Assembly (NCBI RefSeq): GCF_003334815.1
Contig: NZ_QOWO01000055.1
Length of the DNA: 15,478 nt
Reading direction: 5' to 3' (one strand)
Source: Escherichia coli
GTDB taxonomy: Bacteria > Pseudomonadota > Gammaproteobacteria > Enterobacterales > Enterobacteriaceae
Shown here: positions 10,988 to 15,478 of the stretch, piece by piece
How positions within the stretch are numbered: position 1 is the stretch's first letter
How the letters are laid out: each line of letters opens with the position of its first letter
Made by a program: the position numbers and the translations under genes
Notes under the pieces: generated by a model
What the model saw: only the letters and a program-made list of their open reading frames with translations
Databases searched by the model: none
What the model was told of the DNA's origin: nothing

Positions 10988-12442
10988 TTATCGGAACGGC
11001 GGCTCATTAAAGGTTCGTAATTTACGCGAATGCAGTCGGTCGCCTTCTGCGCGCAGCAAATCGATCGCCCGAATGCCAATTTGCAGGTGTTCGGAAATAG
11101 CACCTTCATAAAAACGGTTAGCCTGACCGGGAAGTTTAATCTCGCCATGCAACGGTTTATCTGAAACACACAGTAGTGTCCCGTATGGCACGCGGAAACG
11201 ATATCCTTGCGCGGCAATGGTTGCACTTTCCATATCAATTGCTACGGCCCGGCTTAAGTTAAAACGAAGTGCAGAAGCTGAGTAACGTAATTCCCAGTTC
11301 CTGTCATCTGTGGTTACCACAGTACCAGTACGTAGCCGCTGTTTGACTTCCTCACCGGGCCTGCCACTCACCAGCTTGGTGGCGTCATAAAGCGCACGTT
11401 GCACTTCAGCAATGCTCGGAATAGGAATATCGGGCGGCAGAACCGCATCAAGAACGTGGTCATCGCGTAAATAAGCGTGTGCAAGTACATAATCGCCAAT
11501 GGCCTGACTTTCACGTAATCCGCCACAGTGACCAATCATCAACCAGACATCCGGGCGTAGCACTGCCAGATGATCGCAGATGGTTTTAGCATTGGAAGGT
11601 CCCACGCCAATATTCACCAGAGTAATACCCTGAGCATCGGCGGTAATTAAATGCCATGCTGGCATCTGGTGTTTTTTCCATGCAAGGTCGGAAATGGCTT
11701 CTTCTGGCGCTTCGGTTTCGGCGGTGATCCAGTTCCCGCCAGCACAAGAAAGGGCAATGTAAGGACTATCAGGATCGAGGATCTGGCTGCATCCCCAACG
11801 AACGAATTCATCCACATAACGTGTGTAGTTGGTAAACAAGACGAACGGCTGAAAATGTTCAACTGGCGTACCGGTATAATGGCGCAACCGTGCGAGGGAA
11901 AAATCGACGCGGCGCGCATCAAAATGCGATAGCGGGGAGAATTCCGTTGGATGATAAATGCCGTCTGCAGTTTCATCGCCAATTTGCGCCAGTTCTGTTG
12001 TCGGGAAGTAGCGAGTTAACCCAGCGCTCATTGAGCGATCAAGTGTCAATTCAGAGCCATCGATGACATAAGGATAAGGGATTTCATGCTGCGAGGGTTG
12101 CACAGAGATATGCGCACCATAATCCTGATACAGCAACGTAAGTTGTTCATTAAGATACGAACGAAAGAGAGTAGGGCGAGTAATCGTGGTGGTGTAGCTG
12201 CCTGCGTGAGTAAAACGACCAAATGCGCGCGTTTTGGGGGGATTGGTTGTGCTACCGTCCCAGGTTACGGTCAGTGATGGATAGACAAAAAGACCTTGTT
12301 TGCGGGCGTTTTCATCAGGTAATTCGCCACTTGTAATATAGTTGCCAATGGCGTTGCGTAATGCGACTACAGATTGCTCATACAGCGCGTCGAGTTTATC
12401 CAGTGCCTGAGCTGGGGTCAGACCGGAGCCCTTATTATTCAT
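10988..12442 (-). CDS. amn: AMP nucleosidase
   Basis: Start at ATG 12442 (MNNKGSGLTPAQALDKLDALYEQSVVALRNAIGNYITSGELPDENARKQGLFVYPSL...), 484 aa; RBS AGGAG just upstream on the minus strand. The ORF-track start at 12598 is an extension that overlaps the shiA 3' end. Confidence 0.93.
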   Translation of the reverse strand: MNNKGSGLTPAQALDKLDALYEQSVVALRNAIGNYITSGELPDENARKQGLFVYPSLTVTWDGSTTNPPKTRAFGRFTHAGSYTTTITRPTLFRSYLNEQLTLLYQDYGAHISVQPSQHEIPYPYVIDGSELTLDRSMSAGLTRYFPTTELAQIGDETADGIYHPTEFSPLSHFDARRVDFSLARLRHYTGTPVEHFQPFVLFTNYTRYVDEFVRWGCSQILDPDSPYIALSCAGGNWITAETEAPEEAISDLAWKKHQMPAWHLITADAQGITLVNIGVGPSNAKTICDHLAVLRPDVWLMIGHCGGLRESQAIGDYVLAHAYLRDDHVLDAVLPPDIPIPSIAEVQRALYDATKLVSGRPGEEVKQRLRTGTVVTTDDRNWELRYSASALRFNLSRAVAIDMESATIAAQGYRFRVPYGTLLCVSDKPLHGEIKLPGQANRFYEGAISEHLQIGIRAIDLLRAEGDRLHSRKLRTFNEPPFR

Positions 12443-12513
12443 GTGTGTCTCCTGTTCCATACAATTACCGCACATCCGATAGTATGTCACAGAAATGTGA
12501 AACAAAAGTGTAA

Positions 12514-12537
12514 GGCGAAGATCGGATGATCTTCGCC
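12514..12537 (-). terminator. Stem-loop just downstream of shiA (putative terminator, in the amn upstream region)
   Basis: Perfect 10-bp inverted repeat GGCGAAGATC / GATCTTCGCC with 4-nt loop GGAT, 7 bp past the shiA stop. Confidence 0.5.
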
Positions 12538-12543
12538 AGGCTA

Positions 12544-13860
12544 TCAAGCGCGTTGACTGTCTTTCATCAACAAAGCGGTCATTGCGGAAATCAGGCATCC
12601 AGCCAGCAAATAAATGGCGACGCTATGCCAGTTCCCGGCAAAGTAAGTGATGAGTGCAGCGGCAATAAAAGGTGTAAATCCACCGCCAACCACACTGGCA
12701 ACCTGATAACCGACTCCAGCGCCACTATAGCGATAACTGGCACCAAACATTTCGGTAAACATCGGTTGTTGCACACACACCACCATGTCATGCGCAATGT
12801 TTGCCAGCATTATGGAGAAGAAAACTATCCAGAAAATAGATTGTGCTTCAAGCGCCATAAAGAAAGGAAATGCGCTCAACGTTCCGATTAACGCACCTGT
12901 GATATAAACCCTACGGCGACCAAAACGATCGGCAAGCCAGGCAAAACAGGGAATTGTCAGGCAGCTTAATCCACCTACCAGCAAACCAATATTAAGGAAA
13001 AGTTCGCGCGGTAGCCCCATATTCTGGGTTGAATAATTAAGTGCAAAGGCAGTAACGATGTACATCGTCAGCAATTCGCACAGTCGTAGCGCAATAATCT
13101 TCAGGAAAGCACCGGGATGTCGTAACAGCGCTTCGATAACCGGGATGCGTTTTTTCGCGGCAGCTTGATAATGTTGCTGTTGTTCAAATTCCGCGGACTC
13201 TTCCATGCCATTGCGCACCCACAATGCTCCCAGTACCAGTACGATGCTAAACAGGAAAGGAATGCGCCAGCCCCAGCTTAAAAACTGTTCGTCAGTCGTC
13301 ATCATACTGATCAATGAAACCAGTCCGGTTGAAAGCAGTAAACCTACACCGTAGCCAACTTGTACACCGCTACTGTAAAAGGCTTTTTTATTTTTCGGTG
13401 CACTTTCAACGGAAAGCAACGCCGCGCCTCCCCATTCGCCGCCGACGGCAAATCCCTGAATGGCACGCAGTGTCACCAGCAAAATAGGTGCCCACCACCC
13501 AATGGTCGAGAATGAAGGAAGAATACCAATCAAGGCTGTCGCGATGCCCATCATCCAGACGGTCAGCATTAACATGCGCTTACGTCCCAGTCGGTCGCCA
13601 AAGTGACCGAAAATGACACCGCCGAGCGGACGGAAAAGGAATCCGACGCCAAAGGTAGCAAATGCGGCGAGCGTTCCCATCGCCGGGCTTACTTGCGGGA
13701 AAAACTCGCGATTAAACACCAGTGCGGCGGTGATGCCATAGAGTAAAAAATCATACCAGTCGACGACGGCACCAGCGAAGCTGCCTAACGCAGCTCGTCG
13801 GGCGCGACTTAACGAAAGCGTCCCTTCATCGGGACGAGTGGAGATGAGCGTGGAGTCCAT
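12544..13860 (-). CDS. shiA: Shikimate transporter ShiA (major facilitator superfamily)
   Basis: 438-aa polytopic membrane ORF (MDSTLISTRPDEGTLSLSRARRAALGSFAGAVVDWYDFLLYG...), MFS signature GHFGDRLGRKR; length matches E. coli ShiA. Confidence 0.93.
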   Translation of the reverse strand: MDSTLISTRPDEGTLSLSRARRAALGSFAGAVVDWYDFLLYGITAALVFNREFFPQVSPAMGTLAAFATFGVGFLFRPLGGVIFGHFGDRLGRKRMLMLTVWMMGIATALIGILPSFSTIGWWAPILLVTLRAIQGFAVGGEWGGAALLSVESAPKNKKAFYSSGVQVGYGVGLLLSTGLVSLISMMTTDEQFLSWGWRIPFLFSIVLVLGALWVRNGMEESAEFEQQQHYQAAAKKRIPVIEALLRHPGAFLKIIALRLCELLTMYIVTAFALNYSTQNMGLPRELFLNIGLLVGGLSCLTIPCFAWLADRFGRRRVYITGALIGTLSAFPFFMALEAQSIFWIVFFSIMLANIAHDMVVCVQQPMFTEMFGASYRYSGAGVGYQVASVVGGGFTPFIAAALITYFAGNWHSVAIYLLAGCLISAMTALLMKDSQRA

Positions 13861-14174
13861 AATGATCCTGTTTGTACTGTCTTTTTATAATTAGTATGGA
13901 AAAGGTAACTCACATTGCCGTCGATCTATAAACGAACCTTATGAGACTACCTCGACAGAGCGCATCTGCAAATGATTTTATGGCTGATTAGCGGCAACAT
14001 GAAAAATTCGATGGAAGATGAAAGCGCAGGAGTTGCTGGTGTTGTTTAAGGATTAAGCAGAGGACCCACAGGTTAGAGATATGAAACATAAAAGTCCGCA
14101 TATGCACAAAATGGCACCCTGATGAGTCTGATAGACTGCATTGCATTATAACCAGTAGGGAGGCGAGGTTAGGT

Positions 14175-14777
14175 ATGTTTTTAGCATCATTGTTGAGACG
14201 TATTGCATTTAGTTACTACGATTATAAAGCTTATAATTTCAATATTGAAAAAACAGACTTTGTTGTCATCCATATTCCCGATCAGATTGGCGATGCTATG
14301 GCCATCTTTCCTGTTATTCGGGCGCTTGAATTGCATAAAATTAAGCATCTATTAATTGTTACGTCGACAATTAATTTAGAAGTCTTTAATGCGCTCAAAC
14401 TTGAACTGACTAAATTAACATTAGTTACAATGACTATGCAGGATCACGCAACATTAAAAGAAATAAAAAATTTAGCGAAGAACATAACACTGCAATACGG
14501 TACGCCGGATCTTTGTATAGAGGCGATGCGTAAAAAGAACCTGAAAACGATGATATTTATCAGTCAGTTGAAAGCAAAAACGAATTTTCAGGTTGTTGGT
14601 ATAACCATGAATTGCTTCTCCCCTTTGTGCAAGAACGCGTCCCGTATGGATCAGAAACTCCGGGCTCCCGTACCTATGACATGGGCATTTATGATGCGTG
14701 AGGCGGGTTTTCCAGCAGTCAGGCCAATATATGAATTGAATCGCCACGGGTTTAACAGACACCTCAGAGTCATTTAA
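14175..14777 (+). pseudogene. yeeL: yeeL-like putative glycosyltransferase (family 9 heptosyltransferase-like N-terminal region), 3'-truncated remnant
   Basis: The 200-aa ORF has an N-terminal pattern resembling GT9 heptosyltransferases (VVIHIPDQIGDAMAIFPVIRALE) but is far shorter than the ~320-350 aa typical for the family. AT-rich body until about 14600, then a GC-richer tail that runs into the IS3-family element. Position divergent from shiA matches K-12 yeeL, which is a pseudogene there. Confidence 0.5.
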
Positions 14778-15050
14778 GATGACTTAAAGAGAGGTGCCCA
14801 TGAGTGGTAAGCGTTATCCCGAAGAGTTTAAAATTGAAGCAGTCAAACAGGTTGTTGATCGCGGTTATTCTGTTGCCAGCGTTGCAACACGTCTCGATAT
14901 CACCACCCACAGCCTTTACTCCTGGATAAAGAAGTACGGTCCGGATTCTTCCACTAATAAAGAACAGTCAGATGCTCAGGCCGAGATCCGCCGTCTCCAG
15001 AAAGAGCTGAAGCGGGTTACCGACGAACGGGACATATTAAAAAAAGCCGT
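14732..15050 (+). mobile_element. IS3-family insertion sequence (possibly IS600-like), 5' portion; left boundary approximate; interrupted at 15050/15051 by IS30
   Basis: Contains an IS3-family OrfA. Upstream sequence GGGTTTAACAGACACC carries the GGACAC-like motif common in IS3-family left ends. Left end placed 60-70 bp upstream of the orfA ATG by analogy; not verified. Confidence 0.55.
14800..15050 (+). pseudogene. IS3-family transposase OrfA (HTH plus leucine-zipper protein), C-terminally truncated by the IS30 insertion
   Basis: MSGKRYPEEFKIEAVKQVVDRGYSVASVATRLDITTHSLYSWIKKYGPDSSTNKEQSDAQAEIRRLQKELKRVTDERDILKKA, then reads into the IS30 end. Programmed -1 frameshift-type heptamer A_AAA_AAA at 15039-15045. 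The ORF-track start at GTG 14794 is 2 codons upstream. Confidence 0.75.
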
Positions 15051-15478
15051 TGTAGATTCAATCTGTCAATGCAACACCCCTTTCAATTATCTCTTTCGGT
15101 GTTTTGAACTTCAGTGTCTTTCTCGGTCTGTTGTTTAGCTGAGCAGCAACCAGATCTAGTTCATGTTGAGTATATTGGGCAAGACATGTCTTTTTAGGAA
15201 AGTACTGCCGAATTAGCCCATTTGTGTTCTCATTTGTTCCCCGCTGCCAAGGACTCTGAGGATCGCAGAAGTAAACTTTAACGCCGGTGCTGACAGTAAA
15301 TTCTAGATGTCTGGCCAGTTCCATTCCTCTGTCCCATGTCAGTGATTTTCTGAGTTCTGACGGTAAACTCAGGAATTTGTCGGTAAGAGCCTGATTTACT
15401 GAGACAGAATCTTTGCCCCTGAGTCTAAGGATGATCGTATAACGTGATTTTCGGTCTACAAGTGTGGCTATATGAGAG
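15051..15478 (-). mobile_element. IS30 insertion sequence, one end (terminal inverted repeat begins TGTAGATTCAAT at 15051); continues beyond the window
   Basis: The terminal sequence TGTAGATTCAATCTGTCAATGCAAC matches the remembered IS30 inverted repeat, and the adjacent ORF on the minus strand is the IS30 transposase C-terminus. Confidence 0.8.
15058..15478 (-). CDS. insI: IS30 transposase (DDE, IS30 family), C-terminal 139 codons; N-terminus lies outside the window
   Basis: The minus-strand frame is open from the window edge: SHIATLVDRKSRYTIILRLRGKDSVSVNQALTDKFLSLPSELRKSLTWDRGMELARHLEFTVSTGVKVYFCDPQSPWQRGTNENTNGLIRQYFPKKTCLAQYTQHELDLVAAQLNNRPRKTLKFKTPKEIIERGVALTD. It contains the IS30-family signature PWQRG-NENTNGL-RQYFPK. 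Confidence 0.85.
   Translation of the reverse strand, partial: SHIATLVDRKSRYTIILRLRGKDSVSVNQALTDKFLSLPSELRKSLTWDRGMELARHLEFTVSTGVKVYFCDPQSPWQRGTNENTNGLIRQYFPKKTCLAQYTQHELDLVAAQLNNRPRKTLKFKTPKEIIERGVALTD

Follow-up and report, generated by a model that had tools for sequence, protein, structure and literature searches.

A nested IS30 insertion beside the putative frameshift site of an ISEhe3-like element at the yeeL-yeeJ locus of Escherichia coli

Introduction

The insertion sequence IS30 is described to have "nearly palindromic" non-IR hot spots, in which the element inserts at the central 2 bp (PMC9333248). The natural hot spot that has been used experimentally, lambda LHS (lambda 33244-33498), is such a nearly palindromic site with insertion at its central 2 bp (PMC9333248). 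The same paper describes IS911A::IS30A of E. coli K-12, in which IS911 is interrupted by IS30A. The K-12 chromosome carries two further nests of this kind, IS911B::IS30D::IS600 and ISX (insX, b4505) with IS30B in the CP4-6 prophage, so that IS30 insertions within IS3-family elements are already known from annotation. Another published nest, in which IS30 and a group II intron lie within an IS3-family element close to fragments of ISEhe3, resembles the present case by its description; its locus and host element are different. In the literature, we found no paper stating that the frameshift windows of IS3-family elements are a hot spot of IS30. The generalisation may already be contained in the 1998 paper on IS30 target specificity by Olasz et al. 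(Mol Microbiol 28:691).

Here we analyse a stretch of 15,478 nucleotides of an E. coli genome (GCF_003334815.1, contig NZ_QOWO01000055.1), in the following called the window, in which IS30 parts orfA of an IS3-family element from its orfB. The window ends 428 bp into IS30, and all structure past position 15478 is taken from sister genomes.

Results

The outer element is a member of the IS3 family

The left segment of the outer element occupies positions 14737 to 15050 on the plus strand (314 bp of a 1,229-bp element), as delimited by alignment to uninterrupted and composite copies. It starts with the terminal inverted repeat of the left side, contains orfA and includes the left one of the two copies of the target duplication made by IS30. 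The left repeat, TGAATCGCCACGG at 14737-14749, is the exact inverse of the right end ...CCGTGGCGATTCA read in sister genomes, forming 13-bp perfect repeats with the ends 5'-TG...CA-3' of the IS3 family. An earlier note on this DNA had placed the start of the element at 14732; the perfect inverse of the right end sets it at 14737, and the misassignment is explained by the bases TGAAT of yeeL, which stand directly before 14737. Codons 1-83 of the 92-codon orfA (MSGKRYPEEF...ERDILKKA) were read without interruption at 14800-15048 on the plus strand, as that note had reported, with an ATG start at 14800 and a match to positions 1-81 of the IS3-family profile NF033516. The open frame continues into IS30 and stops at 15138, which adds about 30 foreign residues. 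RefSeq labels this gene "transposase, missing C-terminus" in the sister genomes.

A slippery heptamer A_AAA_AAA, a putative site of programmed -1 frameshifting, lies at 15039-15045 on the plus strand and was placed by reconstruction of an intact copy. In this copy, the heptamer falls where both frames are open, and a -1 shift would fuse OrfA and OrfB into a protein of 382 aa, the length of the CDS of 1,148 nt annotated by RefSeq as "programmed frameshift". The reading frames are consistent with the overlap of orfA and orfB and the -1 shift at an A6G or A7 heptamer that is typical of the IS3 family. No frameshift or pseudoknot family was matched in an Rfam scan of the intact outer element, and the predicted stem of 10-11 bp in the folded region after the heptamer was statistically not unusual (z = -1.5). 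The displaced orfB part, located beyond the window and read in strain 52F4, matches positions 87-369 of NF033516 with 360 bits (cut-off 160) and encodes the DDE integrase-core transposase domain of OrfB.

The uninterrupted comparison copy lies at 1757-2985 of L006, and the true uninterrupted reference was taken from strain EC77. Two other candidates for an intact reference were rejected: the copy on plasmid p40EC-3 carries a 133-bp IS30 remnant, and the copy of ATCC 11775 is an IS911/ISEhe3 chimera. The outer element corresponds to ISX/insX of the K-12 annotation and to ISEhe3 in the literature, a name that follows the usage of two papers: ISEhe3 is equated with insX in Table 3 of PMC3032704, and the Shigella annotations quoted in PMC4924310 list "ISEhe3 orfA (92aa)", in agreement with the 92-aa OrfA found here. 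The target duplication of 3-4 bp expected for the IS3 family is absent at yeeL/yeeJ and present (TTGC/TTGC) around the composite in strain AR_0128. Its absence presumably reflects a deletion or recombination at yeeL/yeeJ and not membership of another family.

IS30 begins 5 nt past the slippery heptamer

The IS30 right end spans 15051-15478 on the minus strand, inverted with respect to the outer element, and comprises 428 of 1,221 bp up to the edge of the window. Reverse-complemented, the right end of IS30A (K-12 MG1655, NC_000913.3) is identical to this segment at 426 of 428 positions, which bears out the assignment made in the earlier note. The right terminal repeat, starting with TGTAGATTCAATCTGTCAATGCAACA, lies at 15051-15076, 5 nt past the heptamer as previously located, and matches the right one of the 26-bp terminal inverted repeats (from 5'-TGTAGATTCAAT) exactly; the left repeat was read in sister genomes. 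Translation of 15051-15478 on the minus strand matches the IS30 transposase profile NF033563 with 165 bits (cut-off 80), the C-terminal 139 codons being located at 15058-15477. In strain 52F4, beyond the window, the complete element of 1,221 bp (988-2208) encodes a single DDE transposase of 383 aa (276 bits) and is flanked by GT/GT. LR-21-1 and EC102 are annotated with the same layout, namely a 1,221-bp IS30 with an intact 383-aa transposase and a GT duplication. The 2-bp target duplication and the displaced orfB, both proposed earlier as checks, are thus found in the sister genomes. In the window, the bases between heptamer and IS30 are GCCGT (15046-15050), and by comparison with the sister genomes, which read GCCGT / IS30 / GTGGCGTACTTC, GT at 15049-15050 is the left copy of the duplication.

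The outer element joins yeeL to yeeJ

The 5' remnant of yeeL lies at 14175-14736 on the plus strand and comprises codons 1-187/188 of 350. In BLASTP, 181 of 188 residues (96%) were identical to residues 1-188 of the intact 350-aa homologue and the sequence diverged thereafter, confirming the truncation of yeeL; of the roughly 350 aa that make up a complete GT9/heptosyltransferase-like protein, only residues 1-188 are left here. The label glycosyltransferase family 9 is the one that RefSeq gives to the intact homologue, WP_001461136.1, and an NCBIfam profile search of the fragment gave no match. RefSeq describes the remnant in sister genomes as "missing C-terminus". The DNA alignment to K-12 yeeL stops at ...ATATGAATTG, and the bases TG at 14737-14738 can be assigned to either yeeL or the insertion sequence.

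The outer element had been taken to lie inside yeeL. It does truncate this gene; however, it bridges yeeL codon 188 and a yeeJ truncated to its first ~1.8 kb, and the 5,993 bp that separate the flanks ...GAAT(TG) and GTGG... in K-12 are missing between the two junctions. Comparison of the flanks with K-12 revealed no target duplication around the outer element at yeeL/yeeJ, which disfavours simple insertion. We propose that the element was placed by an IS-associated deletion or by recombination between two copies.

The whole 1,379-bp stretch 14100-15478 is present in 24 complete E. coli genomes with 99.8-100% identity, so that the arrangement is no product of chance, and strain 52F4 is 100.0% identical to the entire window. 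Beyond the window, 52F4, LR-21-1 and EC102 contain the 894-bp orfB part, and the right end of the outer element adjoins yeeJ. By analogy, the last 793 bases of IS30 would lie past 15478 in the source genome, followed by GTGGCGTACTTCGC..., 915 bp of the outer element up to its right end ...CCGTGGCGATTCA, and GTGGCATCAGCG of yeeJ. One sister genome, N18-04097, has an additional 177-bp deletion beside IS30. The strains with this arrangement are ordinary isolates from humans, livestock and the environment and do not fit the Shigella-like or laboratory E. coli-like genome suggested earlier.

IS30 recurs at the same register

Junction searches were run over 5,426 complete E. coli genomes. The junction of orfA with the IS30 right end was found in 678 and the junction with the left end, representing the opposite orientation, in 545 genomes, numbers that exceed those of independent events because many shared junctions are inherited. 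Distinct combinations of element, orientation and duplication indicate a minimum of about ten events. The uninterrupted site was found in 128 genomes, so that among ISEhe3-like copies in E. coli occupied sites outnumber uninterrupted ones roughly ten to one. The same dinucleotide is occupied in unrelated genomic contexts including plasmids. IS600 and IS911 both contain IS30 at the homologous register in both orientations, and three of the four K-12 copies (IS30A, B and D) adjoin orfA ends of IS3-family elements.

An unbiased search with the left end of IS30 in species-representative genomes yielded 15 loci. Eight of them adjoin IS3-family frameshift windows: one each in Silvania, Kluyvera, Tatumella, Shewanella, Marinifaba and a Chryseobacterium contig, and two in Yersinia. 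Two other Yersinia loci were rejected as IS3-family sites upon translation of their flanks: L034 lies past the stop codon of an ordinary gene, L037 at the start of one. When ten distinct targets were aligned at the duplication, all had YTAA at -12..-9, with the consensus TATTAAAAAAgGc. / NN /.GCGt.cTT. In the E. coli copies the duplication is GT, yet most uninterrupted copies read GCCGCGGCG, which predicts GC.

Comparison with the described nests

K-12 ISX is the same outer element with 97.1% identity over window positions 14736-15047, and the IS30 right end adjoins orfA at the same nucleotide and in the same orientation. In K-12, by contrast, IS1B has shortened IS30B to 181 bp, nothing is left of the orfB half and the copy adjoins yagB instead of lying at yeeL/yeeJ. 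Since its flank reads GCTGC and not GCCGT, the K-12 ISX/IS30B nest is probably a separate event. In IS911A::IS30A and IS911B::IS30D::IS600, IS30 likewise stands 3 nt past the heptamer with a 2-bp duplication (AC), and orfA of an IS3-family host is parted from its orfB. Here, the hosts are IS911 and IS600, the orfA of IS911 being clearly different in sequence, and the orientation of IS30A is opposite to that in the window. IS30D is flanked by the orfA ends of two different elements, which points to later recombination.

Lambda LHS resembles the IS3-family sites in having an A-rich run followed by G/C directly left of the insertion point (...CAATAAAAGTGGCG / ATAGTGAATTT), its central dinucleotide being derived from the coordinates given in PMC9333248. 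It does not belong to an IS3-family element and shows only moderate similarity to these sites. The AR_0128 composite lies in an island on the ychF side and is gap-free with ~99.2% identity and a flanking 4-bp repeat TTGC.

Discussion

Very probably, the window ends within two nested levels of insertion sequences on an ordinary E. coli chromosome, with IS30 occupying a recurrent target of the outer element. We propose that a complete IS30 inserted into the outer element in inverted orientation, by a 2-bp staggered cut on positions +4/+5 past the A7 heptamer and before a predicted GGCGUAC...GUACGCC stem. As anticipated by the earlier note, the insertion splits orfA from orfB, the latter being displaced in the sister genomes. 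Due to this separation, the OrfAB transposase would no longer be made by frameshifting, and the outer element is presumably dead unless transposase is supplied in trans; orfA may still be translated as a truncated fusion. IS30 is target-selective, and the slippery region of the IS3 family (YTAAAAAAGGC-NN-GCG..CTT) would fit a preferred, partly palindromic target. Such a fit could explain why IS30 recurs at one register in either orientation, in different IS3-family elements and across several genera, a recurrence that is shown by the comparison of sequences.

How the nest arose can be seen in different ways. The earlier note took the stacked insertions as the sign of a tolerated locus, and the locus is indeed permissive: yeeL is a pseudogene in K-12, yeeJ of a close relative carries another IS3-family insertion, and the yeeL'::IS junction is common to 49 genomes whose interiors hold further insertion sequences and a group II intron. 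On this basis, a dispensable yeeL/yeeJ region could gather independent insertions, IS30 having entered in situ at a position within the copy that has no meaning. In situ entry is compatible with all results. However, permissiveness accounts for the persistence of the nest and not for the presence of IS30 5 nt past the heptamer, and among the genomes sharing the junction no IS30-free ISEhe3-like copy was found at yeeL. Because the same dinucleotide or its homologous position is hit in hundreds of genomes, on plasmids and in other unrelated contexts, in the opposite orientation, in IS600, in IS911 and in other genera, we regard the target specificity of IS30 as the primary cause of the stacking and an explanation by permissiveness as unlikely. 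A misassembly of repeats, finally, as a source of the orfA-IS30 juxtaposition has nothing in its favour except that IS copies are hard to assemble in general. Given that 24 complete genomes, each sequenced independently, share the 1,379-bp stretch, that the K-12 MG1655 reference annotation contains an equivalent junction and that both the 2-bp duplication and the half of orfB complementing the orfA part are present, its probability is negligible.

Alternatively, a single entry of IS30 into an ISEhe3-like copy may have taken place at another site, after which the 2,452-bp composite, or its interior, would have reached yeeL/yeeJ as a unit. An intact relative could have driven its transposition in trans, or a composite on a plasmid could have been the partner in homologous recombination or gene conversion. 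The chances of such an import are about even. In its favour, plasmids and other sites on the chromosome have the same junctions, including the unusual T variant (GCCGT...GTGGCG), with 100% identity across 140 bp, and LR-64-1, a strain of the yeeL type, has the junction on a plasmid as well. The AR_0128 composite is collinear and flanked by a 4-bp repeat, and its IS30 and outer parts have diverged similarly (about 0.5% and 1.0%). A target duplication around the outer element is nevertheless no proof that IS30 was already inside when the element moved, and mobilisation in trans is a conjectured route. Moreover, the class with opposite orientation has the same T variant, so that a second hit on a rare variant or an unexplained origin of the T would be needed. 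Weighing a ready-made composite against entry of IS30 in situ, we lean slightly towards import.

Beyond this locus, we consider it likely that the programmed-frameshift window of IS3-family elements would be a natural hot spot of IS30 across genera, with a proposed 2-bp cut 3 nt past the slippery heptamer in the sequence YTAAAAAAGGC-NN encoding (I/L)LKKA. IS30 would then be a recurrent, site-specific inactivator of ISEhe3-like elements, IS911, IS600 and their relatives. IS30 lodged at this position may have seeded chimeric IS3-family elements with the crossover exactly there, such as the IS911/ISEhe3 hybrid of ATCC 11775.

In itself, the structure is a matter of routine annotation: two mobile elements that are dead or half-dead, and two accessory genes that are broken. 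The pattern suggests that elements of one IS family are favoured as targets by those of another, which could be of use for the ecology of mobile elements. It would account for the observation that some IS3-family elements exist in E. coli mostly as split pseudogenes, labelled by annotation pipelines only as "transposase, incomplete". Nested insertion sequences call for caution before a permissive locus is assumed where target specificity suffices as an explanation, and the site described here offers a compact natural target, about 25 bp long, on which site choice by the IS30 transposase can be studied.

Results

Layout of the nested insertions

Over the final 1.3 kb of the window, the plus strand carries yeeL, the left end of an outer insertion sequence, its orfA and an inverted IS30 end. 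The glycosyltransferase family 9 gene yeeL starts at 14175 (plus strand) and meets the outer element at 14736/14737, the IS3-family left end beginning at 14737 (plus strand) with TGAATCGCCACGG. The earlier note had recognized this nesting correctly and its coordinates were right apart from the start of the outer element, which it placed at 14732; a TGAAT belonging to yeeL directly precedes the true terminal TGAAT. The orfA reading frame (MSGKRYPEEF...ERDILKKA; plus strand, ATG at 14800, read to 15048) corresponds to positions 1-81 of the IS3-family transposase model in the profile search, and the plus-strand A7 run at 15039-15045 has GCCGT as its next five bases. The right end of IS30, in reverse complement (minus strand), occupies 15051 to the window end. 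Its 428 bases share 426/428 identity with IS30A annotated in E. coli K-12 MG1655, its minus-strand translation scores 165 bits against the NCBIfam IS30 transposase model (cut-off 80), and the assignment is secure. Elsewhere in the window (10988-12598, minus strand), the mechanical amn ORF of 536 aa exceeds the 484-aa CDS (1,455 bp) of the sister genomes by ~50 N-terminal codons, which almost certainly reflects no more than an in-frame start farther upstream.

The uninterrupted outer element of strain EC77 has 1,229 bp and a 92-aa OrfA, and a computed -1 shift at the A7 heptamer yields a 382-aa OrfAB equal in length to the RefSeq "programmed frameshift" CDS. In K-12 the left part is annotated as ISX/insX (b4505), adjoining truncated IS30B. 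The name ISEhe3-like is taken from the equation of insX with ISEhe3 by Archer et al. (PMC3032704), the "ISEhe3 orfA (92aa)" of Shigella annotations (PMC4924310) and the 92-aa OrfA match. IS30 lies between the heptamer and a downstream GGCGUAC...GUACGCC stem, which is predicted by folding and statistically not unusual; in Rfam no family matched. The OrfAB transposase can thus not be made from the copy in the window: as had been proposed, orfA is split from orfB and the host element inactivated, the heptamer being cut off from the downstream half. The interrupted orfA frame stays open and ends ~30 codons inside IS30; synthesis of its truncated product, or a regulatory role for it, is speculative.

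Continuation in sister genomes

Over its full length the window matches 52F4 at 100.0% identity and both N18-04097 and LR-21-1 at 99.9%, and 14100-15478 is present in 24 complete genomes at 99.8-100% identity. Past the window end, 52F4, LR-21-1 and EC102 contain all 1,221 bp of IS30, its 383-aa transposase intact, a GT copying that at 15049-15050, then GGCGTACTTCGC... and 915 bp of the outer element up to its terminus ...CCGTGGCGATTCA, and finally yeeJ, truncated to ~1.8 kb. The displaced orfB frame covers positions 87-369 of the IS3-family model (360 bits), the exact complement of the orfA part. Both this orfB and the 2-bp duplication had been predicted, and the duplication together with the complementary half identifies IS30 as a simple insertion with its characteristic duplication. 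Judged by sequence, the sister genomes have an apparently intact IS30; N18-04097 lacks an additional 177 bp beside the IS30 left end. Strains carrying this stretch come from humans, livestock, food and water and are ordinary E. coli, not the Shigella-like or laboratory-like ones that had been suggested.

The yeeL/yeeJ locus

The outer element does cut yeeL short, the window retaining residues 1-188 of a 350-aa intact homologue, but it is not a plain insertion into yeeL as first read. Compared with K-12, yeeL homology ends at the IS left end and restarts inside yeeJ at the IS right end, 5,993 bp away, so that the element has taken the place of the yeeL 3' part, ~5.2 kb of yeeJ and the region between the two genes. 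The yeeL and yeeJ flanks have no 3-4-bp repeat in common. The replacement probably arose by IS-mediated adjacent deletion or by recombination between two copies.

The yeeL'::IS junction is common to 49 genomes, including 24 of the window type, and no IS30-free outer element at yeeL was found among them. Some carry a second IS3-family element with a group II intron 40 bp into the left repeat, and one has further ISs and a partial IS30 with an unchanged right-hand junction. Strains 204446, RM14721 and ET670 (comparison loci L012, 9040-12530, L014 and L015) share the yeeL'/yeeJ' junctions of the window; there the outer element is reduced to its first 40 bp and last ~460-480 bp, enclosing a different IS3-family element (left end TGGACTGACCCC) together with an ltrA-bearing group II intron. 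In the close relative F3_13_1_3 (L022, 2073-10501), yeeL is intact and yeeJ is split ~2.05 kb from its start by another IS3-family element, annotated with an "AL1L pseudoknot", which marks yeeJ as a repeated insertion-sequence target.

Recurrence of the IS30 position

Of 5,426 complete E. coli genomes queried with junction-spanning sequences, 678 have orfA joined to the IS30 right end, on chromosomes and plasmids, 545 have it joined to the left end (opposite orientation, same nucleotide), and 128 have the site without interruption. Homologous recombination between IS30 copies cannot swap the end abutting a flank, so the two orientations represent separate insertions. The same register, heptamer plus three bases plus 2-bp duplication, recurs in two other IS3-family elements, IS600 (AAAAAAAGCA-AC-AGCGTATTTTGC) and IS911 (AAAAAAGGCT-AC-CGCGCTCTTG), both occupied in both orientations. 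Three of the four K-12 IS30 copies (A, B and D) lie next to IS3-family orfA ends, the sole exception being IS30C in ydbA.

Outside E. coli, a search with the exact 26-nt IS30 left end (one genome per species) gave 15 loci, in 8 of which IS30 abuts an IS3-family frameshift window: ISEhe3-like in Silvania, Kluyvera and Tatumella (duplication GC), IS911 in Yersinia aleksiciae and a Chryseobacterium contig, and other IS3-family elements in Yersinia, Shewanella and Marinifaba. Aligning ten distinct targets at the duplication shows YTAA in all of them at -12 to -9 and a consensus of TATTAAAAAAgGc.|NN|.GCGt.cTT, with arms that are partly palindromic (6-7/12 positions at most sites). The non-IS targets (ydbA and two others) match the left half, which indicates that the sequence preferred by IS30 is one that the slippery regions of IS3-family elements contain by coincidence.

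Discussion

A 24-bp symmetric IS30 target consensus was reportedly described by Olasz et al. in 1998. In the lambda LHS hot spot the bases to the left of the insertion point are similarly an A-run and then G/C. Our target pattern agrees with the published description of non-IR hot spots as "nearly palindromic" sites entered at their central 2 bp, in a study that also notes IS911 interrupted by IS30A in K-12 (PMC9333248).

The 2,452-bp composite also occurs in the ychF-side island of AR_0128, gap-free at ~99.2% identity and bounded by the 4-bp repeat TTGC, and its IS30 and outer portions have diverged similarly from the yeeL composite. Some plasmids, among them one of a yeeL-type strain, carry junctions that are 100% identical over 140 bp. 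Independent IS30 insertions at the hot spot could also give such copies; the sequence comparison favours an old composite that moved or recombined as a unit. Occupied ISEhe3-like sites in E. coli have GT on either side in both orientations (window 15046-15050; comparison locus L019, 983-987 and 2209-2213), most uninterrupted copies read GCCGCGGCG, and insertions outside E. coli duplicate GC. One uninterrupted T-variant copy exists, in strain D1. The T could be a favoured target variant, descend from a single ancestral copy or be an excision product.

Several related copies are rearranged. The IS3-family element of E. coli ATCC 11775 (L005, 2110-3390; NZ_CP033092.2, 4325862-4327142), annotated with a programmed frameshift (WP_371415536.1), is a chimera: as far as AAAAAAGGC it consists of the left end and orfA of IS911, and from GGCGTACTTCGC onward it is ISEhe3-like, closing with an ISEhe3-type right end, with the crossover exactly at the IS30 insertion point; recombination of IS911::IS30 with ISEhe3::IS30 and subsequent loss of IS30 would fit. 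Plasmid p40EC-3 (NZ_CP070923.1; L003, 3064-4282) has the orfA/IS30 junction of the window, with 133 bp of IS30 left, joined to orfB at CACCTGTTGC, and an 11-bp deletion farther along; its annotation, only "IS3 family transposase, frameshifted", masks a deletion derivative. In plasmid pCP131-IncFIB (L025, 1151-4169) an orfB start is found at either IS30 flank, and in K-12 (L017, 4126-6802; IS911B/IS30D/IS600) IS30D lies between the IS911B orfA end and an inverted IS600 orfA end. Such mixed flanks point to recombination among IS30 copies in different IS3-family elements.

The structural interpretation of the earlier note was essentially right. Nests of IS30 in IS3-family elements are already annotated and published, and the finding as such is known; a statement of the generalisation to the frameshift window was not found in the searchable literature. 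That IS30 repeatedly targets this window, across elements, orientations and genera, is well supported, and the stacking at yeeL, formerly read as a sign of a tolerated locus, owes more to IS30 target choice than to permissiveness of the locus.
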